This document shows, piece by piece, positions 1 to 30,285 of a DNA stretch of 33,669 nt. The position numbers and the translations under genes are program-made. Every line of letters begins with the position of its first letter. Positions within the stretch are counted from its first letter, which is position 1. The notes beneath the pieces are model-generated. The model worked only from the letters and a program-made list of their open reading frames with translations. It searched no databases and was not told the DNA's origin. This DNA comes from Candidatus Hadarchaeales archaeon (GTDB lineage: Archaea; Hadarchaeota; Hadarchaeia; Hadarchaeales; Hadarchaeaceae). The stretch covers positions 1-33,669 of the forward strand of contig JAWCLG010000011.1 in the NCBI GenBank assembly GCA_038851075.1, given 5' to 3'.

Positions 1-5
1 ACCAG

Positions 6-3000
6 GTGACCCTGCTCAACGCACTGAAGTCTCCATTCTACACCAGCAGCTGGGTGCAGGGTGAGAATTTCAAGTATCCTGGAGAGCTTGTCGACGAGGA
101 GTACTACTGGAGGGTGAAAGCGAAGGACGACGCGGGAAACGTTGGAGAAGACTGCGGGGACACGTGGTTCAGGGTGGACACCAAGCCACCGGTTGCTCCT
201 TCCCTCAGCTGGCCAACCTACGGCGAAAACGTGAACGACAGCACGCCTAACCTCAGGTGGACGTACGATTACGCGGGGGGCGAGGTCGGAGGCGGAAACG
301 AGAAGTCGAAGCCCGCCTCATACAGAGTCTGGATCGCACACGATGTCGACTTCACAGAACTAGTTTTGGACTCGGGTTGGATGGCAGATCCAAACCTCGA
401 GGACGTGAATGAGAACTGGGAGGTGCCCGTTGAGAACCTCCTCCCGGACAACGTCAACCACTACTACTGGAAGGTGGGAATCAAGGACGCGGCCGGAAAC
501 GTCGGGGAGAACTCCGAGGTGTGGATATTCTGGATCGATACAGTCAAACCGCCTAAGCCGGATCCCGTCTCTCCGGAAAACAACTGGTGGGTGTCATCGA
601 CCGAGAACCTCCAGTGGACATCTGTTGAGGACAACTCGAAACCCGTCGTTTACAGGGTATGGGTCGCTCGCGATGAGGAGTTCACGATGGTGGACAGGGA
701 CTCCGGATGGAGAACCGAGAACTGGTGGAAGATCTCCCCGCCGCTTGTGGACAACTGGTACTGGTGGAGAGTGCAGGCAATGGATAACGCTGGAAACCTG
801 AGCGAAAATGCAGACGCCAGAAGATTCCTGGTGGACACGCAGGCTCCCGGAAAGACCCAGCTTCTGGCACCAGTTGAGGGGGAGAACATGAAGGACAACA
901 AACCAACCCTGCGCTGGGTGGACAACATAGAGGACCCAGCCCAGCCGGTGCTCTACTACGTGTGGGTGGCGAAAGATCAGGGGTTCACGCAGATTTACTG
1001 GGAAACAGGGGCATGGATCGAGGAGAACGAAGTGGAGGTTGGAACAGAACTTCCCGACAACGTCTACTACTGGAAGGTCGGGATAATGGACAACCTCGGA
1101 AACATCGGTGAGAACTCCGACTATTCCTGGTTCAGAATCGACGTGACCAAGCCGCCAAAGCCAGACCTGTACAGGCCTGCGAATAACACTTCAACCGAAA
1201 ATCTATCAGTTGAGCTGGAGTGGTCTCATCTCACAGACGAATCGGGCATAACTTATCATCTCCAAGTTGGAGCCGGATCAAACTTCGAAATGCTGGTGGA
1301 TAACGACAAGCTGAAGGAGAACATTTACCAGTTCACGGCCCCGCGGACAGGACTGTATGTCTGGAGGGTCTGCGCATACGACAACGCGGGGAACATCGGA
1401 GAATGGTCGGACAACTACGTGTTCACAGTTGGCATGTGGCATCTTGCAGAGAACTGGAGCGGGACGATGGGGGTGCTGGTTTCATGGCTGCAGGCGGAGG
1501 GATGGTCCGGGGATGTGAACGCGCCCGTGGGATGGGTGAGCACGGATACATGGGCGGGATCAGTTGTAGTGCCTGTTTCATGGTTCACAGCCGAATTCTG
1601 GAGCGGAGCGATGGGGGCACCGGTTGCTTGGAGCGAGACGGAGTCCTGGAATGGATCAGTTAACGCTCCCGTCAGCTGGCTGAATGTTGAGTCCTGGAAT
1701 GGATCAGTTAACGCTCCCGTTTCATGGCTGCAGGCCGAGGTATGGTCCGGTGCTTTGAACGCGCCTGTTGGGTGGATGAACGCCGAAACCTGGTCCGGGA
1801 GCTTGGGAACGTTCACCCCGGGCTGGTGCCTCGTGCAGAGCTGGTCAGGGGCCGTTCTAGTTCCGGTTGCTTGGGTGCAGACGATGACATGGAGCGGGAC
1901 GGTGAGTGCTCCGTCCCAATGGTCAGTTGCCGAGTCATGGAACGGGTACGTCGGAGTGGTAGTTTCATGGAACGTCGGAGAAACTTGGGCAGGCGCGATA
2001 GGGGCTCCGGTGGCTTGGGTGAACACGGAAACTTGGGCCGGAAAGGTATACGCGCCCGGTCCCGCACCAACCCTGATTTACCCGTCCAACAACTCAGCCG
2101 TACACGATAACGCCCCAACGTTCACATGGGACAACACTTGGGTCGCGGACAACTGGGAGATATGGGTCGACAATGACAGCAACTTCGACACTCCGGTATT
2201 CGTGGAGAACACGGTCAATAACTTCTTCAACTCGCCCCAGCTTGGAGATGAGAACTATTACTGGCGCGTGCGTGGCTGGCTCGGTCCGTCCGCATCTCCC
2301 TTCACAACGTATTCCGTGCTCATAGACACAGTCAGGCCGACCGTGCCGTTGAAGTCTGACATAGCAGAGGACACAGGAAAATCTGACTCTGACATGATAA
2401 CCAATGACGACAACATAAAGTTCATGTGGGGCGCCTCCTCTGATAGTTCAAACTCACCAACCGGAGAAAAGGCAGGAATCAGATGGTACGAGATAATTGT
2501 TGACGATGATTTGTTGCCTCCGTACGAAATTGCAGAAAATGTGGCGGGGCAGGAGATTTACATAGAGGTTCCGGAGGGCACGTGGAAGTGGATAGTCAGG
2601 GCCTGGGACTGGGCCGGCAACGTGAGCGAAAACGAGGCTCCATGGACGCTGATCGTCGACTTCACGCCTCCCGCTCCTCCCTCACTAATAACGCCGGCCA
2701 ACAACTCCGCAACGAAACAGACATCGGCCCTCCTGTTCCAGTGGGAGAACATGGCGAACTCCGACAACATCTGGAAGTACTGGGTTCAGATAGACAACGA
2801 CCAGAGCTTTCCTGGGAACCATCCGAACAAAACGAATACATATCCCACCGTCAACTACATCACAAAGTACTTCATCTATGACCCCAAGGATGAGAACTAC
2901 TGCTGGCGCGTGAAGGCTTACGACATCGCCGGAAACGAAGGCGACTGGTCTCAGGTTTGGTGTGTGATGATAGACACCAGAGCACCGATGTCTCCTGGAA

Positions 3001-4620
3001 AGTATCAACCTGTGGACAATGAAAACATAACATCATCAACCGTCCTATTCGTCTGGGGCGAGACTAATGACCAGTCTTACTCTCCAACTGGTGAGGTGGC
3101 GGGAATCGAGACCTATGAGATATGGATAGATGAAGATCTGAACTTTGGCTCGCCATATCTCGTCGAGAACTTCTCCCCGACTGGAACGGGATCCGTGGAG
3201 TTCGAAATTTCCCTGCCGGACAACGTATACTACTGGCGCGTCAGAGCCTGGGACAGGGCGGGCAACCCCGGAGGCTTCGAAACCGCGTGGAAGTTCACAG
3301 TGGACAACACGCCACCTTCCGCACCGGATCTGGTTTCGCCAGATAACCTGACCATGATGAACGACAACAGACCCACATTCACCTGGACAGAGGTATATGA
3401 TGTGACCGGAGTGACATACGAGATATGGATCGATAACGTTCCGACCTTTGACGATAACCCGTTCGTGGACAACACGGAAAACACGTTCTATGCTCTTAGC
3501 CTCGAGAACGCGCTCACGGACGAGAACTACTACTGGAAGGTCAGGGCGTGGGATGGAAAGAACTGGAGCGAGATCAGAAAGCCCGGACCGTTTTCTGGAA
3601 TAAATTCCCTGCTGCTGGACACGAGAGGACCGCCGGCTCCGAGTTCCTCTCCTGTGGTACAGATAGAGGGCAAGTGGTATGCCGGAGACGGGCTTATAAC
3701 CGGAGACAACCAGCCGTCCGTCCACTGGAACATGGTCACAGACCTCTCGTACTCTCCGACAGGAGAGGTCTCAGGGGTGAGGTATTACGAGCTGGAGATA
3801 GATAACGACAACGGCTTCACGTCGGTCGAATATCGTTGCTTCACATCCGACAACGTCTTCAACTACCTGGACGATAACTACCCGGTCGGAGCCGGGTTCC
3901 CGGATGAAAACTACTCCTTCAGGATCAGGGTCTGGGACTGGGCAGGGAACCACGGGGACTGGAGCCCCATCTGGAGTTTCATAGTTGACACGACACCTCC
4001 CACGGTTCCTGAACTCAAGGCACCGGATAACAATGCCGCGGAAAACGTGGGCATGGCATCCCTTGAATGGTACGATTCCTATGACGCAACGGGCGTGGAC
4101 CACTATTACATAGAGGTGGATGATGATCCTAGCTTCCTGACGCCGCTCGATCCCGGGTTCTTCTCTGATGATCCCACGAACCTAAAGACCACAGCAGTGG
4201 TGGTGACATTTCCTGAGGATGGCAGATACTACTGGCACGTTAAAGCGATCGACAAAGCTGGGAAGGAGAGTGCCTGGTCAGAAACCTGGGAGGTTGTGAT
4301 TGACTGTGTGAAGCCGCCGGTACCCGATCCTCTCACGCCGGTGGACAACTATCTCACTTCGGATAATACTCCGACTTTCCACTGGACCAGCGTTGAGGAC
4401 AACACAGAGACAACTCCACATGTGAGCGGTGTGGAAAACTACGTCCTTCAGATAGATGACAGCCCGGCGTTCACCTCTCCTGCCAGCTTCGTCACGCAGG
4501 AGAATATGCTCACCATCCCGGCCGACAATTCCCTCGCGGTCGGCGCATGGTACTGGAGGGTGTGCGCTGTCGACAGGGCCGGGAACCAGGGCGACTGGTC
4601 GGAGAACTTCAGGATAAACA
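6..4620 (+). repeat. About 13 FN3/Ig-like protein modules (~100 aa) in the giant protein, interrupted by the Trp-repeat block
   Basis: Recurring YYWRV.A.D.AGN....W.F.VDT.PP..P.L..P signature; counted by eye as 5 copies before 1437 and 8 after 2063. Confidence 0.85.
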
Positions 4621-7600
4621 TCACGGATTTGGTCCTGACTCTCGCGCTATCTGACAACATCGTCAACCCAGGGGAGAACTTCGCGATCTCCGGAAGGGCG
4701 AGCTGGCAACCCGAGAACCTGCCCGTTGACAACAGACCGGTGTATGTGTACGTTGATGACAATCTCATCGATACGTTGTACACCGACAACTACGGATGCT
4801 ACTCCACCTCTTACCTGACGAACGCCCTCGGTACGCATCAGGTCAAGGTGGCGATAACTGACAACCACGGAGTATATGAGGAAAACGTGGTGACCTTCAG
4901 CGTCGAGACGCTCACTGTGACAATAATGCTGGACGATTACGTGGCCAACCCCGGAGAGAGCATCGCGATATCCGGCCAGGTCCTTCGCTGGCTGGACTGG
5001 GAAAATGCTGTTCCAGAGAACAGGAGCGCGACTGACATTGTGATATACGTTGATGAGAACTATCAGACCACGCTTCACCCTGATGAAAATGGAAACTACA
5101 GCGGAGAGATCACGGCTCCTGAAAACCTGGGAGCGCACACAGTGTATGTGGACATCGAGAATCCGGACGGCATCACGGGAGATAACCAGACCAACTTCCA
5201 GGTCAAAACCGTGCACCTCACGTTCTCATTCGAACGCAGCATGGCCAACCCTGCCGAGAGGCTGAGGTACTCAGGTGTGGCTACCCTACTGCCGGACGGG
5301 ACCAAGGTGAGCGGCAAGACGGTCGAGGTCTGGCTGGGGGACACCCTCAAGAGCACCGCCCAGACCAACCCAGACGGGAGCTACTCGGGCGAGGTCATAG
5401 TACCCGAGGAACTCGACACGTACCAGTACACGGCAAAACTCTGGGCAGACGACTGGATAAAGGGAGAGAACACCGCGCTGGTCACCGTGAAGAGAATAGA
5501 TCTAGTAGCGTTTTACGATGACAACACGGTGAACCCCGGGGAGCCGAACCAGATTTACGGAACCGCTTTCCTCCTGCCAGACAACGAGCCGGTGGTAGGA
5601 CAGCAGCTCACGTTCACGCTTGAGGATGATCAGGGCAGGATCGTTGGAGGGGCAACGGGATACACCGGCCCGACCGGAGCGTACGCCATCAGCTTCACCA
5701 CGCCCAACGTCTATGGAGTCTACAGAGGAATGGTCAGCATCACCTATCAGGTGTTTTCGGCGGTTACGGTGAGGTATCTCTACGTGAAGGCGGGCGTTAT
5801 CCCGCTGTACTTCGACGACAACGTTGTGAACCTGACGCAGGACTTCTGGATTTCCGGAACAGCCAGAGTGCTGCCAGACAACGCTCCGGTCGCAAACGCA
5901 GAGGTGAAGATATACAGGGACGGAATACTGTACGACAACACGGTCACGAACGAAAACGGACAGTACTCGTATAAGTACACCGAGGACTCGATCACTCCCG
6001 AAAAACGCACAATAAAGGTAGTTGCGGTAAGCCCGGAGGGAATAGTGTGCGAAAACACGCAGTACTTCGAAAAGCGCGTCCTTCAGTACGAGCAGCTCGT
6101 GTCATACGACTCCCACGATCAGTTCGACAGCGTGCTGAATCCGGGAGAGAACTTCTACCCGAGCGTCCTGATCGAAGAGAATAACGGGACACAGGCTTTC
6201 AAAGTTCAGAAATCTCTGGACACCGACCTGTTGAGGGCCAAGGTCGGAGCAAACGTCTACGTGATGTCGCACATAAGGGAAGGTCGCTGGAAGGTGCCCA
6301 GCCTCCAAACCGCACCGAGCTCTCCCGGACAGTACTATATCATGATCGACGTCATGGGTTCCAGCGAGAACGGGATAACCACGCCCGCTTACGGCCTGCA
6401 GATGTTCTACTATGTCAAGACTCTCTCACTGGAGCTGCGCGCCACCGACTACACGGTGAACCCAGGCCAGCAGAATGTGGTTGCATACGGCACGGTCAGG
6501 CTTGTTCCGGATGGGACTCCGGTCGCTGGAGAAAACGTGGCGATATCGTTTGCCGGTGAAAACTATCTGTTAACCACGGCCGATAACGGATACTACTCAT
6601 GCGTTCTGAACATCCCAATGACCTCCAGAGTTGAGAACCTGAGGGCGAGCATAGTGGACTCCAGAGGGCTTGAGATGGAGAACACGGTGACGATAACGGT
6701 AGGGTCAATAGATATATCGTTAATCCCGGAGACTGAGATAGCAGGAGAGGGGCAGCCGTTCAGAATGTATGGAACTGCGTTGCGCAGGCCAGAAAATACT
6801 CCTGTTCAAAACACTGAGGTGAAGTTCTACATTGACAACTCATACATCAAGAGCGTGTATACCGGCACAAATGGTGCGTATGAAATCATACACACCTTCA
6901 CGACGCGCGGAATATACGAGATCAGAGTGGAGATTGTCGACGCTGATGGTATAGTCGGGGAGAACTACAGGAGTGTAATCGCTGGCAGGCCGCTGCGCAT
7001 CTGGGACAACGTTGGCATAAAGGACGTTTCTGGCACGCCTATACAGGCTACGATGAAGTTCTACGAGCAGGGCACCTCGAATGTCGCTTTTCAGATCACC
7101 ACATCCTCGGACGGTACCTATGACGTCTGGGGATTCGCAGGATACTTCGATCTGGAGATAAGCTTCCCAAGCCAGGCCGTGACCCTGAAATATGAGAACT
7201 TAAACCTTGACGGGTTCAGCGCCTGGGATGAGATAAGCAGATTCATAGAGGCCGACACACCGCCTTCGGCGTATGTTTCAGTTCCGGGAACCAGGGGCAC
7301 TCTCAGGGGAATCGCGATCCGTCCACATCAGGTGTTCACAGAGAACTACAGCAGGCTGGTCGTCACATTCACGTACAGCAGCTACATCCAGCAGGTGGGA
7401 GACATATGGTTCCTAAGAGTGTACAGGACCAAGGGATACCAGCTTGAGAACCGTATGGTGGAGGGAGGCTGGAAGGAACTGGGAGGGACTCTGGATGTTG
7501 CCAACTACAAGATCACCGCGATAGACAACGAGGACCCGCCCGCGGTGGCGTACGTCGTGGCGGAGTACGACCCGCTCTCCGCGGTTCTCCTCACTTTTGA

Positions 7601-10600
7601 AAATGCGGTTTCCACAATTCAGGAAACCGCCGGGCTTCTTGGAGAGATGTCGCAGAGCCTCATGGATAACGCCCTCCTGCTCGCCAGCGTTGTGGATAAT
7701 CTGAAGCAGACCGTGGGCAATCTCGCGACACAGGAGAACATCGCGGCACTGGCGGATATACAGGGGCAGATAGCAAACATCCTGGACAACGTCTCCGGCA
7801 TCCTCAACCAGATTGTGAATCTCGAAAACTCTTCACTGGGGCTTACAGAGAACCTCTGGAGCGCGTTCATCCAGCTGTCACAGCTTCTCGAGAACGCGTC
7901 CAGAAGCTCTCAGGTCGACGAGATAAGGGAGCAGCTCTCCCAGGCATTTGCGGTGCTTCAGGGCCTGGCTCCCAGAGAGTCTCTGAGCATAGACCCATCC
8001 ATAGCCTGGCTTGAAATCTACCAGGGTGAGACCACGGAGTTCTTCGTCAGAATAACAAACACGTCCACATCGGACCTGTCGGTTCATCCTGAGAAGGGCG
8101 TCAGAAACTGGCCTGAGTCTCTTGAGCTCGACAGATCTATCAGGATGTCTTTCGATCCCTCTGTCCTGAGCCTGAAGTCAGCGGAAACCCGCACGCTGAC
8201 GGTAACGGTAGTGGCCGGAACGAACGTGCCGGCGGGCGTATACTCCGGAGAGGTGCTGATCAAGGGCACAGGCGTGGAGAAGGCGCTCCCCGTTGCCATG
8301 AGAGTGCGTCCGTGGGCTAGGGGACTCTTTGACCTCAGCGTGACCTCGCTTGTCAGGACCAGCTATCCTGGAGGAAAGGTCCCGGTGGAGGTACAGCTGA
8401 AGAACATGGGTATCCAGGCCGCTGACGCCGAGGTAACTGTCACCCTGGAGAGCGTATCAGGTGCTAGGCTGGCCACCGTGATGGGCGAGACGGTCAAGGT
8501 GGATGTGAGCGAGACCAAGGTTCAGACATACGAGATCGAGGTGCCGGTTGATATAGAGGAGGGGCAGTACGTTATCAAAGCCGTTGCGGTTTATCACTGG
8601 AACGGAGATAATGTGACGATTTCAGGAGTGGACACGGTGGAGATTGAAAAGTTCATAAAAGTCACGCTTAGAACGCTGGCGCGCGAGGTTGAGCCCGGCG
8701 GAAAGATTCCTTTTGAGGCGGAGTTCAGAAATACCGGGTCGGAGTGGACCGAGGTCAACGTTAAGCTGCAGCTCCTGACACCGGCTGGAGAGCCCTGCTG
8801 GTCGGAATCTGTCAGAATATCTCTCGAGCCAAACTCTGTTGAGAGAAGAACGTATGAGGCGGATGTACCATCAGACACCGCTGGAGGAACGTTCGTGCTC
8901 ACGGCATCCGGCGAATACGTGTGGCTGGAAAAGGCGATTTCAATCACCGAGGCAGAGGCAGAGGTTCAGGTGAAAAGCCCGCCGTTCACCTTCTTCGGCA
9001 TCTCAATACCCTGGTTGATAATCTCGGCCGTGGCAATAGTGGCCGCGGGTATCGCTGGAAGGTTTGGATACAGGTACTACCAGAAGAGAAAAGCTGCAAG
9101 GCGCAGGTTTGAGGCGAGACTGTTTACCGCCGAGCTTCCGAAACCCGGGCCGGACGCCATTAAGATAGGAAAGCTCGCGGAGGCACCTGGAGACGCTCAC
9201 CTTGACATAAATGACCTGAGAATGCATGTCATGACGGCAGGCGCCACCGGAGGCGGAAAAACTATCTCGTCGATGGTAATTGCCGAGGAGGCGCTGCTGA
9301 AGGGCAGGAACGTGATTGTCTTCGACCCGACCGCACAGTGGACCGGGTTCCTGAAGAAGTGTACCTCCGAGAAGATGCTGTCATATTACAAGAACTTTGG
9401 GATGAAGGATAGCGATGCCAGGGGATTCCCTGGTGTGGTCAAGCTTGTAACAAACCCGAGGCAGAAGCTGGACATGAAGGAGCTGCTCGGTGAGGAGGCA
9501 AGAGGAAAGATCACCGTGTTCGTGATAGAGCGTCTGAAGCCGGGAGATATGGACGTGTTCGTAACCAACGTAATACAGTCCATATTCGAGTCACAGCCGA
9601 TGGAGTATCCGGGGCTGAAGACCCTGCTCATATTCGACGAGGTACACAGGCTTCTCCCGAGGTTCGGAGGGACCGGTGCCGGAGTCATACAGCTCGAGCG
9701 CGCCGTCCGTGAGTTCAGAAAGTGGGGAATAGGAGTGATGCTCGTGTCCCAGGTCATGGGAGACTTTGAGGAGGAGATAAGATCAAACATAAGGACTCAG
9801 GTTCAGTTCTGGACCAGGGAGAAGGAGGAACTTGACAGGATATCAAGGACATACGGAGAGGAGCACATGCGTTCGGTCTCCAAGGCCCCGGTTGGATTCG
9901 GCATGCTAGTCAATCCGGATTACAACAGAGGCAGGCCTTACTACATCAACTTCAGGCCGATTCTGCACGAGGTTCAGAGGCTGGATCCAAAGCAGCTCGA
10001 CAGGTACTACGCGGCCGATGAGAGGATAGAGAACATCAAGTACAAGCTGAAGAAGCTGGAGGAGAAAGGAGTTGATGTCTTCGATCTGCGCATTGAACTC
10101 GGGCTGGCAATGCGCAAGCTTGAGGAGGCTTCGTTCGACATGGTTGACGCTTATCTCGAGTCGCTCGAGCCGAGGGTGGAGAGCGTGTGCGCCCAGCACA
10201 AGATGGCCGGATTGAAGCGGGAGATTGAGCTGAGGTCGGAGAAGGAGATAAAGGAGACGCAGATGGCGGCGCTCAGAGAGCGTGAGCGCAGGCTCGGAGC
10301 GGTTGCCAGACGCCCGCCGGAGATTGTGGAAGCCTACAAGGAACTGCTCGCGCGCGCAACTCCGGTGGCAACAGGAGAGACAGGGAAGCCGCTCAAGGAG
10401 GAAGAGGTGGTGCATCCGATGGCGGAGAAGGGACCGCCAAAGAGCGAGGAGGAGATAGAGAAACAGATGGAGGAGATTGAAAAGCCGAAAGAGGCGGCTG
10501 AGAAGAAGGTCGTGGAGGAGAAAGAGGAGCAGGTCAAAAAGGCAAAAGAGGAGAAGAAACCGGCCGCAAAGGCCAAGGCGAAAAACGGCGCTGCGAAAAA

Positions 10601-10625
10601 GTCCAACGGTAAAGGCAGAAGGTAG
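6..10625 (+). CDS. Giant cell-surface protein (5' truncated): FN3/Ig-like repeats, Trp repeats, Ig-like repeats, coiled coil, CARDB-like domains, single TM helix, C-terminal HerA/FtsK/VirB4-like (DUF87-type) ATPase
   Basis: The frame is open from the window edge and begins mid-repeat with no signal peptide, so the true start is upstream. TM helix FFGISIPWLIISAVAIVAAGIAG (~8990-9060) is followed by basic YYQKRKAARRR. Walker A GATGGGKT 9240-9263, VIVFDP, Walker B LLIFDEVH 9624-9647 and REFRKWGIGVMLVSQ are the characteristic HerA/FtsK-superfamily motifs. Lys/Glu-rich tail. Confidence 0.9.
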   Translation: MTLLNALKSPFYTSSWVQGENFKYPGELVDEEYYWRVKAKDDAGNVGEDCGDTWFRVDTKPPVAPSLSWPTYGENVNDSTPNLRWTYDYAGGEVGGGNEKSKPASYRVWIAHDVDFTELVLDSGWMADPNLEDVNENWEVPVENLLPDNVNHYYWKVGIKDAAGNVGENSEVWIFWIDTVKPPKPDPVSPENNWWVSSTENLQWTSVEDNSKPVVYRVWVARDEEFTMVDRDSGWRTENWWKISPPLVDNWYWWRVQAMDNAGNLSENADARRFLVDTQAPGKTQLLAPVEGENMKDNKPTLRWVDNIEDPAQPVLYYVWVAKDQGFTQIYWETGAWIEENEVEVGTELPDNVYYWKVGIMDNLGNIGENSDYSWFRIDVTKPPKPDLYRPANNTSTENLSVELEWSHLTDESGITYHLQVGAGSNFEMLVDNDKLKENIYQFTAPRTGLYVWRVCAYDNAGNIGEWSDNYVFTVGMWHLAENWSGTMGVLVSWLQAEGWSGDVNAPVGWVSTDTWAGSVVVPVSWFTAEFWSGAMGAPVAWSETESWNGSVNAPVSWLNVESWNGSVNAPVSWLQAEVWSGALNAPVGWMNAETWSGSLGTFTPGWCLVQSWSGAVLVPVAWVQTMTWSGTVSAPSQWSVAESWNGYVGVVVSWNVGETWAGAIGAPVAWVNTETWAGKVYAPGPAPTLIYPSNNSAVHDNAPTFTWDNTWVADNWEIWVDNDSNFDTPVFVENTVNNFFNSPQLGDENYYWRVRGWLGPSASPFTTYSVLIDTVRPTVPLKSDIAEDTGKSDSDMITNDDNIKFMWGASSDSSNSPTGEKAGIRWYEIIVDDDLLPPYEIAENVAGQEIYIEVPEGTWKWIVRAWDWAGNVSENEAPWTLIVDFTPPAPPSLITPANNSATKQTSALLFQWENMANSDNIWKYWVQIDNDQSFPGNHPNKTNTYPTVNYITKYFIYDPKDENYCWRVKAYDIAGNEGDWSQVWCVMIDTRAPMSPGKYQPVDNENITSSTVLFVWGETNDQSYSPTGEVAGIETYEIWIDEDLNFGSPYLVENFSPTGTGSVEFEISLPDNVYYWRVRAWDRAGNPGGFETAWKFTVDNTPPSAPDLVSPDNLTMMNDNRPTFTWTEVYDVTGVTYEIWIDNVPTFDDNPFVDNTENTFYALSLENALTDENYYWKVRAWDGKNWSEIRKPGPFSGINSLLLDTRGPPAPSSSPVVQIEGKWYAGDGLITGDNQPSVHWNMVTDLSYSPTGEVSGVRYYELEIDNDNGFTSVEYRCFTSDNVFNYLDDNYPVGAGFPDENYSFRIRVWDWAGNHGDWSPIWSFIVDTTPPTVPELKAPDNNAAENVGMASLEWYDSYDATGVDHYYIEVDDDPSFLTPLDPGFFSDDPTNLKTTAVVVTFPEDGRYYWHVKAIDKAGKESAWSETWEVVIDCVKPPVPDPLTPVDNYLTSDNTPTFHWTSVEDNTETTPHVSGVENYVLQIDDSPAFTSPASFVTQENMLTIPADNSLAVGAWYWRVCAVDRAGNQGDWSENFRINITDLVLTLALSDNIVNPGENFAISGRASWQPENLPVDNRPVYVYVDDNLIDTLYTDNYGCYSTSYLTNALGTHQVKVAITDNHGVYEENVVTFSVETLTVTIMLDDYVANPGESIAISGQVLRWLDWENAVPENRSATDIVIYVDENYQTTLHPDENGNYSGEITAPENLGAHTVYVDIENPDGITGDNQTNFQVKTVHLTFSFERSMANPAERLRYSGVATLLPDGTKVSGKTVEVWLGDTLKSTAQTNPDGSYSGEVIVPEELDTYQYTAKLWADDWIKGENTALVTVKRIDLVAFYDDNTVNPGEPNQIYGTAFLLPDNEPVVGQQLTFTLEDDQGRIVGGATGYTGPTGAYAISFTTPNVYGVYRGMVSITYQVFSAVTVRYLYVKAGVIPLYFDDNVVNLTQDFWISGTARVLPDNAPVANAEVKIYRDGILYDNTVTNENGQYSYKYTEDSITPEKRTIKVVAVSPEGIVCENTQYFEKRVLQYEQLVSYDSHDQFDSVLNPGENFYPSVLIEENNGTQAFKVQKSLDTDLLRAKVGANVYVMSHIREGRWKVPSLQTAPSSPGQYYIMIDVMGSSENGITTPAYGLQMFYYVKTLSLELRATDYTVNPGQQNVVAYGTVRLVPDGTPVAGENVAISFAGENYLLTTADNGYYSCVLNIPMTSRVENLRASIVDSRGLEMENTVTITVGSIDISLIPETEIAGEGQPFRMYGTALRRPENTPVQNTEVKFYIDNSYIKSVYTGTNGAYEIIHTFTTRGIYEIRVEIVDADGIVGENYRSVIAGRPLRIWDNVGIKDVSGTPIQATMKFYEQGTSNVAFQITTSSDGTYDVWGFAGYFDLEISFPSQAVTLKYENLNLDGFSAWDEISRFIEADTPPSAYVSVPGTRGTLRGIAIRPHQVFTENYSRLVVTFTYSSYIQQVGDIWFLRVYRTKGYQLENRMVEGGWKELGGTLDVANYKITAIDNEDPPAVAYVVAEYDPLSAVLLTFENAVSTIQETAGLLGEMSQSLMDNALLLASVVDNLKQTVGNLATQENIAALADIQGQIANILDNVSGILNQIVNLENSSLGLTENLWSAFIQLSQLLENASRSSQVDEIREQLSQAFAVLQGLAPRESLSIDPSIAWLEIYQGETTEFFVRITNTSTSDLSVHPEKGVRNWPESLELDRSIRMSFDPSVLSLKSAETRTLTVTVVAGTNVPAGVYSGEVLIKGTGVEKALPVAMRVRPWARGLFDLSVTSLVRTSYPGGKVPVEVQLKNMGIQAADAEVTVTLESVSGARLATVMGETVKVDVSETKVQTYEIEVPVDIEEGQYVIKAVAVYHWNGDNVTISGVDTVEIEKFIKVTLRTLAREVEPGGKIPFEAEFRNTGSEWTEVNVKLQLLTPAGEPCWSESVRISLEPNSVERRTYEADVPSDTAGGTFVLTASGEYVWLEKAISITEAEAEVQVKSPPFTFFGISIPWLIISAVAIVAAGIAGRFGYRYYQKRKAARRRFEARLFTAELPKPGPDAIKIGKLAEAPGDAHLDINDLRMHVMTAGATGGGKTISSMVIAEEALLKGRNVIVFDPTAQWTGFLKKCTSEKMLSYYKNFGMKDSDARGFPGVVKLVTNPRQKLDMKELLGEEARGKITVFVIERLKPGDMDVFVTNVIQSIFESQPMEYPGLKTLLIFDEVHRLLPRFGGTGAGVIQLERAVREFRKWGIGVMLVSQVMGDFEEEIRSNIRTQVQFWTREKEELDRISRTYGEEHMRSVSKAPVGFGMLVNPDYNRGRPYYINFRPILHEVQRLDPKQLDRYYAADERIENIKYKLKKLEEKGVDVFDLRIELGLAMRKLEEASFDMVDAYLESLEPRVESVCAQHKMAGLKREIELRSEKEIKETQMAALRERERRLGAVARRPPEIVEAYKELLARATPVATGETGKPLKEEEVVHPMAEKGPPKSEEEIEKQMEEIEKPKEAAEKKVVEEKEEQVKKAKEEKKPAAKAKAKNGAAKKSNGKGRR
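1437..2063 (+). repeat. 13 tandem 16-aa Trp-rich repeats (consensus WxxxExWSGxVxAPVx; 48-nt period)
   Basis: Units such as WLQAEGWSGDVNAPVG, WSETESWNGSVNAPVS and WLNVESWNGSVNAPVS (one unit has 17 aa). Exact 32-nt direct repeat GAGTCCTGGAATGGATCAGTTAACGCTCCCGT at 1641-1672 and 1689-1720. Confidence 0.95.
4621..6985 (+). repeat. About 8 second-class Ig-like modules (macroglobulin/carboxypeptidase-regulatory-like) in the giant protein
   Basis: Repeated D..VNPGE...I.G....LPD..PV and T..NG.YS motifs, e.g. LSDNIVNPGENFAISG, LDDYVANPGESIAISG, YDDNTVNPGEPNQIYG, ATDYTVNPGQQNVVAYG. Confidence 0.75.
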
Positions 10626-10694: not shown

Positions 10695-11486
10695 ATGAGG
10701 GCGGCGGTTAAAGTGCTGGCGATATCTGCGGTGGCCGCACTGGTCTTCACCGGGGTCTATCTATCGCTTAAGGTGACTTTTGAGCTGGCAGGGTTGGATT
10801 TCGTGGCAGATGGCGACTGTTTTATCCGGGTCAGTTACCACACGAACCGCCCCGCGGTTGCTAGGCTTTTGTCATATGATAACAGGGTGCTGGAGGAGGT
10901 GGAGCTGCCTTCTGGATCAGACCATGCCGAAATTAAAATAACAGAGAACCGCAGCAATCCCAAAGAGCCGGTTTTTCTGATAATAGAACAGGGTGGCAGA
11001 GTTATCTGGACCGGTGGTTTCTCGATGCCGGTTGTCCAGCTAAAGCTCATTGGCATAGTGGAGTGGGGCTGGGATCCTGATGCCGGCCTGAGCACCATCA
11101 AGTGCTTGGCTGTCCAGATAAGCAACGGAGGAGGGCTACCAGCGCATGTGTACAGGATAAGCGGTCTGCTGGACGGAAGACTCGTTGGAGGGACTTCAAC
11201 CGAGTGGGAGCCTGCTGGAGAGGGAATTGTGGACAGATGGATAATGCCTGGTGCCGAGGACAATCTGACCGTGGAGTGGAGTGGACCGTCGCTTTCACCA
11301 GGATACCACGGATTCAAGCTCGTCGCCGAGGACATTGACGGTGAAGAAGTCGCAGGTATGGTGTTCCCAGCCTTCGTCAACGTTCCAAGCGAGTACATTC
11401 ACGGCGGGAGGATGGTCGATGAGTGGAGCGGGGAAGTCGGGGCACCGGCTGGATGGTACAGATCGGAGAACTGGAGATTGAGGTAA
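10695..11486 (+). CDS. Membrane-anchored or exported beta-rich protein with a C-terminal Trp-repeat motif
   Basis: N-terminal hydrophobic segment VLAISAVAALVFTGVYLSL; beta-strand-rich body; ends GRMVDEWSGEVGAPAG-WYRSENW, in register with the 16-aa repeat of the giant protein. Confidence 0.8.
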   Translation: MRAAVKVLAISAVAALVFTGVYLSLKVTFELAGLDFVADGDCFIRVSYHTNRPAVARLLSYDNRVLEEVELPSGSDHAEIKITENRSNPKEPVFLIIEQGGRVIWTGGFSMPVVQLKLIGIVEWGWDPDAGLSTIKCLAVQISNGGGLPAHVYRISGLLDGRLVGGTSTEWEPAGEGIVDRWIMPGAEDNLTVEWSGPSLSPGYHGFKLVAEDIDGEEVAGMVFPAFVNVPSEYIHGGRMVDEWSGEVGAPAGWYRSENWRLR

Positions 11487-11555: not shown

Positions 11556-12365
11556 CTACCGGGTCCTGCCAATGTGCTTCAGAATCTCTCCAGCCAGATT
11601 TACAAATCCTCTGGATGCCCTGCACCTGGGTCTGTGCTTCACGACAGGTATTCCTGCCGCGGTGGCCTCCTGCACCAGCCTGCTTTCGGGAATCTGGGCG
11701 ACCACCGGCCACCCTAATGATTTTTTCACCTCCGTGATGGACAGCTCAAACGGGTATCCTGCCACCCTGTTTACGACCACGCCGAATATCGGAATTTTGT
11801 ACTTCTCTGCCGCCCGGAATGTCTTGAGAGTGCTGGCTATCGTGGGAACATATGGATTTGTTACTATTATCATCTCGTCGCAGGCTTTCAGCGCCACGAC
11901 CACTTCCTTGCCTATGCCCGGAGCGGTGTCTATCAGGATGAGCTTGAACATGCGCTTGAGGGGTTCTATCAGCTCCCCGAGGTCAGAAACGTATATCTCA
12001 TCCTCGAACGCTATTGATCCGAACACCGCCTTTACGCCCTGGCTTTCAGTTATGGCGTCCTGAATCGGAAGTCCCCTGGAGACCACATCGTGCACGGTTA
12101 TCTCGGGGGTGAGCTCTCCGAAGTGGAGACAGAGGTTTGGGGCGCCGAAGTTGGCGTCCAGCAGCAGCACCCTGTCCTCACCCCACATGTTCGCGAGCGC
12201 AATGCCGGTGTTTACCACTGTGGTGGTTTTTCCTACGCCCCCCTTGCAGGAAAAAACGCCTATGACTCTTGCCTCGCGCTTTTCTATGAATGGGGAATCC
12301 ATCTTCCTGCCGTCCAGCAGGACTTTCAGTTTTCTCGTCGCGCGCGGTTTTTTCAACAGCGACAT
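11556..12365 (-). CDS. minD: MinD/ParA-family ATPase
   Basis: Deviant Walker A KGGVGKTT, LLLDAN..APNL, ILIDTAPG, GVVVNRV, IPES..VQEA...GIPVV; basic ~30-aa N-terminal extension. Confidence 0.85.
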   Translation of the reverse strand: MSLLKKPRATRKLKVLLDGRKMDSPFIEKREARVIGVFSCKGGVGKTTTVVNTGIALANMWGEDRVLLLDANFGAPNLCLHFGELTPEITVHDVVSRGLPIQDAITESQGVKAVFGSIAFEDEIYVSDLGELIEPLKRMFKLILIDTAPGIGKEVVVALKACDEMIIVTNPYVPTIASTLKTFRAAEKYKIPIFGVVVNRVAGYPFELSITEVKKSLGWPVVAQIPESRLVQEATAAGIPVVKHRPRCRASRGFVNLAGEILKHIGRTR

Positions 12366-12425: not shown

Positions 12426-13331
12426 TCAGACGAGGGCGTCGAGCAGCTTTGATATCCCGGTCTCGACCACCTTGATCTCCCTCTCGATCCTGTCTAGTCT
12501 CCTCTGATTTTTCTCATCGTTTTCCTTAAGGGTCTCCACCATCTCCTTTAGCTTTGCGAACTCCACCGGGTCAAGCTCGGACTTCACTTTGGCGGCCAGC
12601 TGGGTGGAGACGAACTTTTCAAAATCAGCTTTGGGCAAGGCCTGCTTAACAGCAGTGTCCACCTGGCTGAGGGTCTTCGACATGTTTTTCACGCTCTCCT
12701 CCACGACTCCGAGCCTCACCAGCATGTCTGTAACCTCCTTCAGCCTTCTCTGAAACTCCATAAAGGCGCTCATCACCTTGTCAGACATCAGCTCGACTTC
12801 ATCCCTGAGTTTCTGTATCCGCATTATGTTTCTCCTAGCATCGTCCGCCATACCCACGACCGTTTCGAACCCCTTGAACTTGGCCATGGTCTCCCTGTAA
12901 CCGCCAATCTCCTTTCTCAGTTCCTTTATCTCCTCGCTCACTAGGGAGAACTTCGTCTTCAGACCCTCTATGTCGTTATCCCTCTTCATTATCATTGACC
13001 TGAACTCCTCGGGCTTTATGCCCTCGAGAGCACCCAAGGCTCTCTCAGCCTTGGCCTTGGCATCAGCGCTGTCCTTTGCCTGGCTGAGGATCATGGACCT
13101 CAGCTCACCGACCTTCTCGTTGAGCATGGATATTCTCGTGTCGGTCGGTTCCCTGAGTGCCATGAGACCCATCACGCTGGCCTCCAGCTGATCCATTTTG
13201 ACCTTTAGTGCCTTGTCAATCTTAGATTCCAATGCAGGCTCGGGCGCGGGAGATTCCTCAGGTTTTTTCTGTTCTTCGGGCTTTTCTGAGGATGCCTCCT
13301 TCTTTTTACCGCGTTTTTTCAGCATCTTCAT
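12426..13331 (-). CDS. Cytoplasmic coiled-coil protein of unknown function
   Basis: 301 aa, heptad-patterned and rich in E/K/L/M/R, no TM segment, charged disordered N-terminus; GGTGA lies just upstream of the ATG AAG ATG start region. Confidence 0.8.
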   Translation of the reverse strand: MKMLKKRGKKKEASSEKPEEQKKPEESPAPEPALESKIDKALKVKMDQLEASVMGLMALREPTDTRISMLNEKVGELRSMILSQAKDSADAKAKAERALGALEGIKPEEFRSMIMKRDNDIEGLKTKFSLVSEEIKELRKEIGGYRETMAKFKGFETVVGMADDARRNIMRIQKLRDEVELMSDKVMSAFMEFQRRLKEVTDMLVRLGVVEESVKNMSKTLSQVDTAVKQALPKADFEKFVSTQLAAKVKSELDPVEFAKLKEMVETLKENDEKNQRRLDRIEREIKVVETGISKLLDALV

Positions 13332-13445: not shown

Positions 13446-13931
13446 ATGGAGCGAAACGAAATAGCGATAGTTCTGCTCCTAGCCATGCTGGCCTGCGCGT
13501 GGGCTGTCTGGCTATGGGGCGGTTCGTTTGGCGCCGGCACCTCAAATGATAATCTGGAAGGCCTGTTGGACAGAACATCCCTTTTCAGGGGTTATCGGGC
13601 ATATATGGATAACTCGCTGGGCCTCTGTTTCACCACAGGGTCGAGCATGGAGCCGGCCCTCAGGACCGGAGATACGGCTATATGGGTCAAAGTTCCATTT
13701 GAAAATCTTCAAGTTGGAGATGTCATCGTTTACTCACATACCGTCACAGTAGGAGAGAACAGGGGTCAGATCTTCATAGTCGTTCACAGGATCATTAACA
13801 CAGTGGAGGACGGAGTTTTCACGAAGGGAGACAATCTCTCCAGCCCTGATGCTTACAAAGTGAGACCGGGAGATTTTATAGGTCTTGTTAGGGGCGTCCT
13901 GTTCACATCCTCCGGATCGTGGGAGAGGTGA
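13446..13931 (+). CDS. S26 signal peptidase I, ER/archaeal (Sec11/SipW) type, predicted active
   Basis: N-terminal TM; box B TGSSMEPALRTGD (Ser nucleophile), VGDVIVY, IVVHRII (His base), TKGDN...PD. Start moved from 13344 to ATG 13446, with TTAATA ~24 nt upstream. Confidence 0.85.
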   Translation: MERNEIAIVLLLAMLACAWAVWLWGGSFGAGTSNDNLEGLLDRTSLFRGYRAYMDNSLGLCFTTGSSMEPALRTGDTAIWVKVPFENLQVGDVIVYSHTVTVGENRGQIFIVVHRIINTVEDGVFTKGDNLSSPDAYKVRPGDFIGLVRGVLFTSSGSWER

Positions 13932-13935
13932 GAGC

Positions 13936-14370
13936 ATGAGGAGAGCAACTGTTAAAAAGATTGAGAGCGGGATTGTCCTAGTTTTACTTTTCGCAACGAC
14001 TTTCAGCTGGATATTTGCTGTTTCGAGGCTGTTTTCCGAGCAGAAGCTGAATGACGTGTCGGAATATTTTGACAACTTCAGGGTTCTGCTCAGTGATGAG
14101 ATCAATATAACATCCGCTGGAAACTGGGACATGGGGCAGACCATCAGGGAGGGCGATATGGTCATGTGGGTACGGCCTGATCAGGGAAAGGTTGGAACCG
14201 GTGACCTGGTGCTGTGCAGGGATGAAGATAATTCAGTTATCGCACGCAGGGTAATTTCAACCGATAACGGATGCTTTCAAGTCAGGGGAGACTCGCTGGG
14301 AAGTGAGACTTATTCAGTTTCTTTTACAGACATCGTCGGACAGATTATCGGAGTGATTTACGAGAGGTGA
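13936..14370 (+). CDS. S26 signal-peptidase-like paralogue lacking catalytic residues
   Basis: Co-linear with the upstream peptidase (TIREGDMVMW, TGDLVL, RRVI, VRGDS, DIVGQIIGV) but SSMEP is WDMGQ and VHRI is ARRV; GAGGTGA RBS overlaps the upstream stop. Confidence 0.75.
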   Translation: MRRATVKKIESGIVLVLLFATTFSWIFAVSRLFSEQKLNDVSEYFDNFRVLLSDEINITSAGNWDMGQTIREGDMVMWVRPDQGKVGTGDLVLCRDEDNSVIARRVISTDNGCFQVRGDSLGSETYSVSFTDIVGQIIGVIYER

Positions 14371-14374
14371 GGTT

Positions 14375-15040
14375 ATGTCAGCTCCCGCTGAGGAAGTAAA
14401 GATTGGTAAAAAGGACCTGATTAAACTTTTCGTGAAGAAGCGTTGGAAGCACCTGATCCTCGCTGGTGCGTGTATCGCGGTCCTGTCCTTCGTGTTCTGG
14501 CTTGTATTCAAGCCGCCTGAGCCACAGCCAGCCTGGGTGTCAGGGCCGATTTTCAACCAGCCGGGAGAAAACGGCCTTCTCGCCGCGGTTGGTGAGAACA
14601 CCGGGATCGAGAATATATACCTCGCGGCATGGGGAAAATATGGGCCCGCGTACAATCCGAGGGAAGACCTAGCCGCACAGGCAGGTGCGGTTGACGGGGT
14701 GATAAGCTCCAGCGGGCAGTGCGTGCAGATATGGGCGAACAGGCGGTTCGACATAGTCATTGCGGTCAGGGCGAAGACTCCGGAAATAGCCTACGTGGCG
14801 AGGGAAAACATGTGGGTGACGCTTGCCGCGACGGTAAACGGGTTCACCATAGGTCCCGAAAATTCAACCGACCGTAAGGAATACGTGTTCGAGCAGTCGG
14901 GTTACGGGACTACCGAGGGATACATGCGCGTGAACGTTGTGTGGGACAACGACGGGAACGGTTACGAGCTCATGCCGCAGGATAACCTGAAGATAATGTT
15001 GCTGGGCTTCTACACCTGGAGATATCCTGGAAGACTTTAA
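14375..15040 (+). CDS. Exported or membrane-anchored protein, paralogue of the 15110-15922 product
   Basis: GAGGTGAGG RBS; KKRWKH followed by hydrophobic helix LILAGACIAVLSFVFWLVF; shares six ordered motifs with the convergent gene. Confidence 0.8.
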   Translation: MSAPAEEVKIGKKDLIKLFVKKRWKHLILAGACIAVLSFVFWLVFKPPEPQPAWVSGPIFNQPGENGLLAAVGENTGIENIYLAAWGKYGPAYNPREDLAAQAGAVDGVISSSGQCVQIWANRRFDIVIAVRAKTPEIAYVARENMWVTLAATVNGFTIGPENSTDRKEYVFEQSGYGTTEGYMRVNVVWDNDGNGYELMPQDNLKIMLLGFYTWRYPGRL

Positions 15041-15073
15041 GTTGCACCTCAGTGTACCCAGCCCCAGCTGATC

Positions 15074-15097
15074 AAATAAAAAAATAAAAAAAAGAAA
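15074..15097 (-). terminator. Oligo-T archaeal terminator for the 15110-15922 gene
   Basis: Minus strand TTTCTTTTTTTTATTTTTTTATTT starting 12 nt after the TAG. Confidence 0.7.
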
Positions 15098-15109
15098 TGC
15101 GCTGCTGGA

Positions 15110-15922
15110 CTAGCTCCAGATATACAGCGCAATTGTGTCCAAGCTAAGGGTTCCGCCGGCCGGTAGTTTGAAGCCAGCCCCTCCATTGTTGAACACGCAG
15201 TTGACCCTTGCATATCCACTAGCATACGCTCCGTTCTGTGTCCACGGCACGTTGTTGTCAAAGACGAACTCATAGCCAGTGTTCTGCGTGTTTTCAGTCC
15301 CTGAGTGTGCCCCGCTGAAGCTGAGATACCCATACATATTGTCCATGTTCACGTATGCCACGAGCTTCGCATCCTGCTTGTTTCCGGTGTAGCCTGCGTC
15401 GGCCTTAACCTTGCAAGCCATGACTATGGTGAACGGATACTCGTACGGAATCGTTGCTGTGTCAGAGTTTGCGGTTATTATAGCGTCAGAGGCTCCATCC
15501 AGCAACCAGTTGTCATTGTTTTCCCCGGATATGTGCCTGCCGAAATTGGTTGAGTTTGGTGCAAGATTGTCGCAGATGAGCACGTTCTCTATCCCACTGT
15601 TTTCAGGTACGCCTGCGGTAAAGCCAAGCAGAAACTGTCCATCGGCGGTCAGCAGCTGCCCCGAGATCAGCGAAACGGTCCCCTGTCCAGAAACCGTTGA
15701 TGGTGTGGACAGTGCCCATCCAGCTAGCCCTGCCACTATCACTATTGCAACAGCTGCGGTAACCCATTTCCACTGTGCCATTCTTTTTTCCACCTCCATT
15801 TTTTTTATTGGTGCCCTCGCCAGAGGTCCGGGCATAAAATCAAGTCTCCCCTTGCAACGCGGGCATTCCTTCGGGTGTTGCACCCTCGGGTTCCACTCAT
15901 ATCCACAGCGGGGGCACCTCAT
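15110..15922 (-). CDS. Exported protein with N-terminal C4 Zn ribbon, TM/signal helix and Gly/Asn/Ala-rich beta domain (candidate filament or surface subunit)
   Basis: CPRCGYEW.PR...PKECPRCK, then WVTAAVAIVIVAGLAGWAL; alternative start at Met48 (15781) with GGAGGTG RBS. Confidence 0.8.
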   Translation of the reverse strand: MRCPRCGYEWNPRVQHPKECPRCKGRLDFMPGPLARAPIKKMEVEKRMAQWKWVTAAVAIVIVAGLAGWALSTPSTVSGQGTVSLISGQLLTADGQFLLGFTAGVPENSGIENVLICDNLAPNSTNFGRHISGENNDNWLLDGASDAIITANSDTATIPYEYPFTIVMACKVKADAGYTGNKQDAKLVAYVNMDNMYGYLSFSGAHSGTENTQNTGYEFVFDNNVPWTQNGAYASGYARVNCVFNNGGAGFKLPAGGTLSLDTIALYIWS

Positions 15923-15946
15923 ACACTTAAATCTAGTCCCCCCAAC

Positions 15947-15960
15947 TTATTTAAGGGTTG
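15947..15960 (-). promoter_or_regulatory. Putative BRE/TATA promoter for the Zn-ribbon exported-protein gene (leaderless)
   Basis: Minus strand CAACCCTTAAATAA ending 24 nt before ATG 15922. Confidence 0.6.
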
Positions 15961-15967
15961 TTTTTTG

Positions 15968-16180
15968 CTACTATGATGATTTCAGCTCTCTCTCCATCAT
16001 AGTAATAGTTCGCTCTTTATCGAAAGAATTAAAAGTAGTATCCATAAAAACCTTGGAAAAAACGCTATTTTTGCGATTTTTATGCGTGCAACGTTTTCAA
16101 CGAAAAATCGGCGTTTTTTCGCATTATTGGCGAATGCGCCTGATCTCTACTATGATGACTCCTGTAAGTATACTATGATA
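15968..16180. repeat. Four TACTATGAT boxes flanking an A/T-tract-rich imperfect palindrome
   Basis: TACTATGATG 15969-15978 with inverted CATCATAGTA 15995-16004; CTACTATGATGA repeated at 15968 and 16147; TACTATGATA at 16171; GAAAAAACGC 16056/GCGTTTTTTC 16111 and CGATTTTT 16074/AAAAATCG 16103. Confidence 0.8.
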
Positions 16181-16474
16181 ATATTCAGAGAATGTCAGAG
16201 GGGATGTTAAAAATATTCACCGTTGCTTACAGAAAGGGCACTTCCCATGAGATGACAAACGTAGATGAAACATGCGGAAATTGCCGGTTTGTCTGCCGCA
16301 CCGCAGTTCAAAAGCCTTCCACGAACCTCAAGTTCTTTCCGCAGCCAGGCGTTTTTTCCCGCCGGCACGGCTTGATTTATGGCTGGCATGTTGGGATGCA
16401 AGCGTTTTCTCACAGGTCCAGTGATGCCGAGCGATAGTATTAAATCAGGCTCCAATCAAGAAAAAAAGACCAGT

Positions 16475-26739: not shown

Positions 26740-26778
26740 TTCAATTCTGCGCCAACGTATTTAAATGGAATTGCAGTT

Positions 26779-30277: not shown

Positions 30278-30285
30278 CTCACCAC

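Follow-up and report, generated by a model that had tools for sequence, protein, structure and literature searches.

A candidate surface-protein module linked to intact and serine-less signal peptidases in Hadarchaeota

We analysed a 33,669-nt stretch of DNA from a Candidatus Hadarchaeales archaeon (GenBank assembly GCA_038851075.1, contig JAWCLG010000011.1; hereafter the window), centring on two convergent genes, A and B. Judged by sequence, their products represent the two branches of a previously undescribed family whose members are small, acidic and all-beta and lie at the cell surface; each of the two products is predicted to sit N-in/C-out through a single N-terminal membrane segment. 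Beside them lie two genes of the S26 peptidase family, one for a predicted active signal peptidase (Pep1) and one for a paralogue that has lost its catalytic serine (Pep2). The paralogy of A and B, their domain architecture, the catalytic-residue state of the peptidases, the gene linkage, the duplication of the module and the transcription signals are direct observations. Tentatively, we read the four genes as a peptidase-coupled surface-structure module, in which B may be the abundant, processed unit and A a membrane-held minor unit kept by a SipA-like pseudo-peptidase. The relevant features of the window are as follows.

13446..13931, plus strand: Pep1, a signal peptidase I of the archaeal/endoplasmic reticulum (ER) type, with a single membrane segment; Ser67, His114 and Asp129 are all intact
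13936..14370, plus strand: Pep2, an S26-fold paralogue with Asp65 in place of Ser and Arg104 in place of His; Asp119 is kept
14375..15040, plus strand: A, 221 aa; its short basic N terminus lacks a zinc ribbon and is followed by a membrane segment, a stretch rich in Pro and an all-beta ectodomain
14453-14509, plus strand: membrane segment of A (residues 27-45), hydrophobic
14510-15037, plus strand: ectodomain of A, all-beta
15074..15097, minus strand: oligo-T tract T8-A-T7-A-T3 (T8-A-T7 at 15078-15093), 16 nt past the stop codon of B and taken as an archaeal terminator signal
15110..15922, minus strand: B, 270 aa; it starts with a zinc ribbon and a cytoplasmic linker, continues with a membrane segment and a region rich in Ser, Thr and Gly, and ends in an ectodomain (to 15113) that is acidic and all-beta
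15707-15763, minus strand: membrane segment of B (residues 54-72), hydrophobic
15836-15922, minus strand: zinc ribbon of B (residues 1-29), with four cysteines
15947..15954, minus strand: TATA-like box TTAAATAA, about 28 nt ahead of the ATG that starts the long form of B, read directly from the DNA

Both open reading frames (ORFs) that an initial annotation of this DNA had described as a convergent pair were found at the positions given for A and B, 69 nt apart. All six pairs of shared motifs that it listed occur in the two translations, and the paralogy that it proposed holds. Aligned by BLASTP, A and B are 27% identical over 241 columns (E 2e-15), and a family profile matches A at E 3e-64 and B at E 3e-83, so their likeness reflects homology and not chance. 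The membrane segment claimed for each protein is likewise present, as a single hydrophobic segment; in B it is preceded by two CPxC pairs and then about 25 cytoplasmic residues. The ectodomains are about 150-190 aa long and acidic, with a median isoelectric point of 4.27 and 12.9% Asp plus Glu across 75 members.

Gaps of only 4 nt separate Pep1 from Pep2 and Pep2 from A. The annotation had placed two SipW-type peptidases beside the pair; both are indeed of the S26 type and lie upstream of A, but the second lacks the catalytic Ser and His. Pep1 scores 56.9 bits against TIGR02228 (archaeal signal peptidase I; curated cut-off 51.85), and its SMEP, HR and GDN boxes align with those of human SEC11A/C. 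By score and by its Ser/His/Asp boxes it is predicted to be an archaeal/ER-type signal peptidase I. Pep2 is related to Pep1 (BLASTP E 3e-8) and, as an S26 homologue that has lost its nucleophile, is a putative SipA-like protein. A search for Pep2 homologues returned the query alone.

Linkage and duplication of the protein–peptidase pair

Word-based searches returned 4 other A-like and 17 other B-like proteins, for which the sole source name given was Candidatus Hadarchaeales. A profile search of 1.84 billion representatives produced 247 matches at E ≤1e-3; roughly the first hundred span the ectodomain, and the remainder match ribbon positions only. Species-representative genomes were scanned with two zinc-ribbon words as the seed, a search that is blind to relatives without a ribbon, and this yielded 62 loci, of which L001-L029 carry the ectodomain. 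Almost all of these are labelled Hadarchaeota or Hadesarchaea, the exceptions being L015 ('archaeon'), L027 ('Methanobacteriota archaeon') and L018 ('Hodarchaeaceae'). Among named genomes, the family was found essentially only in Hadarchaeota. The L018 contig (JASEJC010000028.1) is labelled Candidatus Hodarchaeaceae, an Asgard lineage, and its protein nests inside the Hadarchaeota B clade; this may reflect a binning or labelling issue or a gene transfer.

Gene content was counted over L001-L029 and the window (n = 30), with six-frame ORFs searched. An intact S26 peptidase adjoins the B-like gene in all 24 loci that extend more than 400 bp beyond that gene; the other six end at most 396 bp after it. 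The expected linkage of homologues to S26 peptidases of the SipW/Sec11 type is thereby borne out. Among 34 peptidase ORFs across the loci, the 24 that keep Ser, His and Asp are all 24 of the first copies. In all ten second copies the Ser is missing, its place within a conserved W-x-M-G motif being taken by Asp, Gly, Glu or Asn; six of them still have the His and four have lost it.

A-type genes are present in 8 of the 30 loci, each time with a Ser-less peptidase copy in the same locus (8/8), and in seven of these eight A and Pep2 lie no more than 10 nt apart or overlap. Two further Ser-less copies have no A-type gene beside them; they lie 236 and 133 bp from the end of their contig.

A conserved segment of about 25 residues lies between the membrane segment and the Ser box in both the intact and the Ser-less peptidases (consensus N-x-T ... 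F-x-G-Y-x-A-Y-L-D), often with an N-x-T sequon. We know of no such segment before the Ser box in canonical Sec11 or SipW sequences.

In four loci (L010, L015, L016 and L019) the gene order is B-Pep1-A-Pep2. An ectodomain tree of 35 proteins, which leaves out L017, the fragment L028 and the N-masked copy of L014, is split by a single branch with 100/100 support into 7 A-type and 28 B-type rows. A second tree covers 30 peptidases, 10/10 Ser-less and 20/24 intact copies (without L004, L011, L019 and L022); in it the Ser-less copies fall on one side of a branch with a Shimodaira–Hasegawa-like approximate likelihood ratio support of 98. Gene order and both trees together point to a single tandem duplication of the protein–peptidase module. 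The simplest history would be one tandem duplication of the pair, after which one pair lost its zinc ribbon and its nucleophile yet was kept. Duplication and retention as a pair are the strongest evidence for physical cooperation between ecto-protein and S26 protein. Since Pep2 has no nucleophile, its relation to A cannot be that of a peptidase cleaving A.

What form such cooperation takes is less clear-cut. A and B could be non-catalytic partners of the S26 proteins, forming B:Pep1 and A:Pep2 heterodimers in the manner of SEC11-SPC22/23 or of the proposed DUF5305 accessory protein, and maturing the large secreted protein of the cluster. The one-to-one co-occurrence of ecto-protein and S26 protein and their duplication as a pair are in keeping with this, as are the proximity of A to a protein unable to cleave it, the predicted N-in, single-span topology of both partners and the conserved ribbon, which fits a retained N terminus. 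In the available text on Haloarcula, duplicated tafD/tafG pairs were likewise used to argue for a peptidase accessory protein (PMC11821415). The eukaryotic complex (7P2P/7P2Q) offers a direct comparison: Pep1 shares its Ser/His/Asp boxes, and the candidate partner is single-span and N-in, with a beta-rich outer domain and a one-to-one relation to the peptidase. However, SPC22/23 are absent from the top 50 Foldseek matches, no DUF5305 match was found in Pfam or NCBIfam (for single family members, among the 25 commonest of 89 matched families), and B is transcribed separately with a strong terminator, as befits an abundant product and not a stoichiometric subunit. We regard the heterodimer proposal as unlikely. 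About as doubtful is a broader alternative, in which the beta-domain proteins are obligate non-catalytic partners in a two-subunit prokaryotic Sec11-type complex with a cytoplasmic ribbon, the duplicate being an all-pseudo pair with a binding or chaperone role, or in which B forms a polymer of a fold unrelated to TasA. When the ectodomains of Pep2 (residues 30-144) and A were folded as a complex, the interface score ipSAE was 0.00 in two runs, with no controls folded, a result that speaks on neither side as to binding.

The zinc ribbon and the expression of B

The zinc ribbon that heads B, with its four cysteines, did not feature in the initial annotation. It is encoded from the true start of B, the ATG at 15922, whereas the gene call in the window begins at residue 42 (229 aa). 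In the closest relative, L001 (7726-8538), the NCBI call also starts about 42 residues late (227 aa) and misses the ribbon. The ribbon is kept in frame in all 29 related loci. It is seen in only 32 of the 95 members of the family alignment, and late gene-call starts of this kind may account for some of the members that lack it. As a module it is generic: such a unit of 28 residues also stands alone in many archaea.

The promoter and long T-rich terminator ascribed to the minus-strand gene were both recovered, as the TATA-like box and the T8-A-T7 tract. The distance of about 28 nt between the box and the ATG suggests a leaderless or nearly leaderless B mRNA. Downstream, a run of at least five T residues occurs within 65 nt of the B-like gene in 26 of 26 loci, and of at least six in 23 of 26, compared with 8.5% and 2.5%, respectively, of random 65-nt windows from the same loci. 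In many loci a TATA-like box then precedes Pep1. Identity between the window and its nearest relative L001 is 85-86% for B, 73-74% for A, 56% for Pep1 and 53% for Pep2, making B the most conserved of the four proteins. From its separate, terminated unit and this highest conservation, B would be made alone and in excess, as structural subunits usually are, and A and Pep2 would be made together. The major/minor asymmetry suggested earlier thus stands: B is universal, monocistronic and the slowest-evolving of the four, and A is present in only 8 of 30 loci.

Several further observations concern the non-coding DNA around these genes. A palindrome-like sequence, TTAGCGNTAGCTA, lies between the B terminator and the TATA-like box before Pep1 in seven loci of the single-copy clade: L002 (8062-8074), L006, L009, L011, L012, L013 and L029. 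It may be a regulator site; the window lacks the exact motif. An AT-richer intergenic stretch of 456 bp (15923-16378), which contains the B promoter, separates B from the homoaconitase-family gene. Rfam gave no match anywhere in the window, and a scan for sigma-70 promoters and hairpin terminators was set aside as not applicable to archaea.

The layout of B, in which one span joins a zinc-binding domain in the cytoplasm to a beta domain outside the cell, beside a signal peptidase, could also be that of a membrane-tethered signalling protein. Its ectodomain would sense a ligand, the signal peptidase would make a regulated site-1 cut and the ribbon stub would be released or degraded, much as with the anti-sigma factors RsiV and RsiP. 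Signal peptidase is reported to cut type II proteins of such a layout (PMC4183432, PMC8844934); RsiV and RsiP have a cytoplasmic domain, one span and an extracellular ligand-binding domain and are not classical secretory precursors. A site-2-type protease of the M50 family is encoded at 21129-22286 of the window. RsiV and RsiP are, however, bacterial, sigma-factor based and without homology to B, and archaea have no sigma factors. No conserved linkage to a site-2 protease is seen here either: of the loci, only the window and L001 show it. A lacks the ribbon, which is itself a generic module, and the strong terminator and high conservation of B better fit a structural protein. A signalling role is very unlikely.

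Fold, cleavage and resemblance to known systems

AlphaFold2 models of full-length B and of the A ectodomain (residues 46-221) were built from a 95-row family alignment. B was modelled with a mean predicted local distance difference test (pLDDT) score of 85.2, its ectodomain lying mostly at 90-97; the A ectodomain reached a pLDDT of 95.5 and a predicted template modelling (pTM) score of 0.91. Both ectodomains are modelled as all-beta, with about 11 strands. Two details of the initial annotation are not supported by these models. The linker of about 25-30 aa that it placed after the membrane segment is modelled instead as beta strands packed on the domain (pLDDT 91-93 in A; 61-72 for the equivalent strands of B), and its distal cleavage sites, LLAA-V and GFTA-G, fall inside a modelled strand, the second of the N-terminal strands. 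It had also held that a complete monomeric domain would speak against a filament. The model of A is such a domain (pTM 0.91); this does not settle the matter, since in the AlphaFold monomer of AbpA, too, the donor strand completes the fold of its own subunit (PMC9245690).

The fold searches were largely negative. Foldseek against 350,542 PDB chains gave nothing at E ≤1e-3 for either model (best E 1.7e-3 and 4.3e-2; template modelling (TM) score ≤0.43). With the full-length B model, the top matches were S. pyogenes/PI-2 pilins (TM about 0.22), which are pilins that need SipA; we did not take these as a match, as that search was dominated by the helix and the ribbon. Against a viral library, A matched only uncharacterised proteins (TM ≤0.47). 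In the ESM Atlas, A had no usable match and the B ectodomain only leads scoring below 0.9. Pfam and NCBIfam hold no family for the A or the B ectodomain: the matches of B were weak zinc-ribbon types (residues 1-29) and one weak chance match, TIGR02588, and when 95 members were scanned singly the 25 commonest of the 89 matched families were all zinc-ribbon types. No match to Pfam Peptidase_M73, DUF1102 or a member of the TasA superfamily was found by sequence or profile in the searches run.

The kinship with TasA, AbpA, cannula and thread subunits that had been proposed for A and B is accordingly not seen by Pfam, NCBIfam, PDB-sequence profile or in the top 50 Foldseek matches. No test that we ran supports membership of the TasA superfamily; the resemblance is one of layout and likely logic, not demonstrable homology. 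That A and B are true but extremely divergent members, with a jelly roll and donor-strand complementation, is highly improbable. For it speak the locus grammar of subunit, TIGR02228-type peptidase and minor paralogue (as in the available part of bioRxiv 10.64898/2026.01.04.697558), the acidic ectodomain of about 150-190 aa, ESM Atlas feature leads to jelly-roll capsid families (scores below 0.9) and the statement, in PMC9245690, that it takes the most sensitive methods to detect remote branches of this superfamily at all. Against it stand the lack of any Pfam or NCBIfam match, the lack of a relevant PDB-sequence profile match at E up to 10 and the absence of TasA, AbpA, CanA and thread from the Foldseek top 50 with two confident models.

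Set beside TasA-superfamily loci (tapA-sipW-tasA, tafA/tafD and abpX), the A/B cluster shares a small beta-rich exported protein directly next to an archaeal-type signal peptidase I, a paralogous minor protein in some loci, an acidic ectodomain and linkage to S26 peptidases, which is frequent there but not universal. From what is available of these reports, the cluster-encoded S26 peptidase TafD of Haloarcula is needed to process the fimbrial subunit TafA, and the duplicated tafD/tafG pairs are read as a sign of cooperation (PMC11821415). Pyrodictium abpX encodes a predicted signal of 54 residues and is followed by a TIGR02228 peptidase; related loci contain minor subunits and a DUF5305 accessory protein, and AbpX was discoverable from TasA by Foldseek (bioRxiv 10.64898/2026.01.04.697558). 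As described there for P. abyssi, the subunit gene comes first and the peptidase next, which matches B then Pep1 in most of our loci. The differences are equally plain. Sequence and Foldseek similarity to the TasA superfamily are lacking, B has a folded zinc ribbon before its membrane segment, and Pep1 has one membrane segment, compared with four reported for TafD and ten for the AbpX-linked peptidase in the text available. No DUF5305 or TapA-like gene is present, and the A/B cluster additionally encodes a pseudo-peptidase, an ATPase of the MinD type and a giant surface protein anchored in the membrane.

Pep2 has its closest parallel in SipA of S. pyogenes, described in the available text of PMC4049620 as an inactive signal peptidase (Ser to Asp) essential for pilus polymerisation. 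Like SipA, Pep2 is a conserved S26-fold protein whose catalytic Ser has given way to another residue, in the window to Asp as in SipA, and its gene adjoins that of a small surface protein with a beta-sandwich domain. By contrast, SipA is of the bacterial Ser/Lys type and works with a sortase and LPXTG pilins, whereas Pep2 belongs by descent to the Ser/His/Asp Sec11 type, as a duplicate of the active peptidase next to it. Pfam and NCBIfam scans found no sortase or LPXTG protein in the window.

Whether B is a plausible substrate of Pep1 was judged with the −3/−1 small-x-small rule, which is crude and permissive. By this rule, all 30 B-type rows have conforming sites where the membrane segment ends, typically A-W-A with L as the next residue. 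A-type rows are Pro-rich at that point, and four of eight have only marginal sites (one row is N-masked). On our tentatively favoured reading, B would be the abundant building block, made from its own leaderless, strongly terminated transcript and paired with the intact Pep1. Pep1 would cut B at the small-x-small site, where the membrane segment ends on the outside, freeing the beta domain to assemble on the cell surface by any mode of polymerisation, strand donation or otherwise. A would go uncut and stay in the membrane, where Pep2 might hold it in its peptide-binding cleft, as proposed for S. pyogenes SipA, and would act as base or nucleator.

A number of observations weigh against this reading. 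The A/Pep2 pair is missing from 22 of 30 loci, so an anchoring function of A cannot be general. The AlphaFold models are complete monomers, N-terminal strands included, and the first strand of A is confident, part of the fold and begins 6 residues past the membrane segment. TasA, AbpA, cannula, thread and SPC22/23 chains are absent from the Foldseek top 50 with both models, and the family profile run against 177,635 PDB sequences gave three irrelevant matches (E ≥0.48). The stretch between the membrane segment and the GIEN motif of B-type proteins varies from 30 to 54 residues and is Pro/Thr/Ala-rich in many members, much as in a stalk on an anchored protein. Conservation in B is highest in the ribbon, with 18 of 45 invariant columns within the first 28 residues, in an alignment and a set of loci that were partly selected through the ribbon; such conservation would be odd for a discarded segment and suggests that the ribbon is retained or has its own role. 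A ribbon region of 50 residues is also atypical of signal peptides. Finally, the giant surface proteins of the cluster, with ordinary signal peptides, could be the real substrates of Pep1, and Pep1 may be the sole housekeeping signal peptidase of these small genomes.

Many of these points would suit uncleaved type II stalked membrane proteins. A and B would then be adhesins, lectin-like receptors or docking partners of the giant protein, and the peptidase, as general signal peptidase of the cluster or of the cell, would serve the giant protein and not have A and B as substrates. This fits the giant proteins with classical signal peptides, which recur in 19 of 30 loci, the variable and often Pro/Thr/Ala-rich post-membrane stretch, the complete monomer fold, the conserved zinc ribbon and the weak best fold matches, which are beta-sandwich adhesin, pilin or capsid domains. 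It leaves unexplained why protein and peptidase duplicated as a unit, why a Ser-less peptidase is retained, always with an A-type gene, and why B is always the immediate neighbour of a peptidase. We consider uncleaved anchors rather unlikely. The analogous non-type-IV filament or sheath proposed at the outset is supported in part, by the paralogy, the S26 linkage and the major/minor asymmetry; its relationship to TasA, AbpA, cannula or thread subunits and its distal cleavage sites are not supported.

The wider cluster and its place in Hadarchaeota

On the far side of Pep1, the window encodes further components of the cluster.

3..10625, plus strand: giant surface protein of more than 3540 aa with an open 5′ end, containing immunoglobulin (Ig)-like/FN3-like modules and W-rich 11-residue repeats
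10695..11486, plus strand: membrane protein, 263 aa, with no family match and with homology to a portion of the giant surface proteins encoded at other loci
11556..12365, minus strand: P-loop ATPase of the MinD type that recurs in the cluster (minD_arch at E 2e-49, under the cut-off)
12426..13331, minus strand: coiled-coil protein, 301 aa, divergent from Pep1 and found only in the window, L001 and L007

Of the 30 loci, 14 encode a MinD-type ATPase and 19 a giant surface protein with Ig repeats. The C-terminal part of the giant protein in the window consists of a membrane segment, a cytoplasmic HerA/DUF87-type P-loop ATPase and a Lys/Glu-rich tail. This ATPase fusion is found only in the window, L001 and L007; the giants of other loci end in a membrane segment and a basic tail. 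Two relatives of the giant protein have classical N-terminal signal peptides.

The other flank of B holds housekeeping genes (Trm1, triose-phosphate isomerase) or a weak helix-turn-helix protein across the loci, and genes of the homoaconitase and isocitrate-dehydrogenase families in the window. These housekeeping neighbours place the cluster in the core genome, with B at its edge. Farther out, the M50 (site-2 type) membrane protease (21129-22286, plus strand) lies 5 kb from B among housekeeping genes; its linkage to the cluster was rejected, as it occurs only in the window and L001. Glycogen/alpha-glucan genes unrelated to A and B occupy 25564-31536 on the minus strand, namely those for two GT4/starch-synthase-like transferases, a GH57 enzyme and a glycogen debranching enzyme.

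Overall, the observation made in the initial annotation is confirmed and extended, and its interpretation is partly supported. The A/B proteins add a protein family without a named domain, and gene callers overlook the zinc ribbon of B in both the window and L001. Our literature search returned no prior description of the A/B family or of an archaeal inactive signal peptidase, and Pep2 would seem to be the first counterpart in archaea of SipA, the inactive signal peptidase of streptococci. A pair that was duplicated as a unit, with one copy then becoming non-catalytic, amounts to a natural experiment on whether partner binding by S26 peptidases is stable. To our knowledge, Hadarchaeota are uncultured, and we know of nothing reported on their cell surface. 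Its housekeeping context and its recurrence across named Hadarchaeota genomes make the A/B cluster a concrete candidate for a main envelope or appendage system of this lineage.

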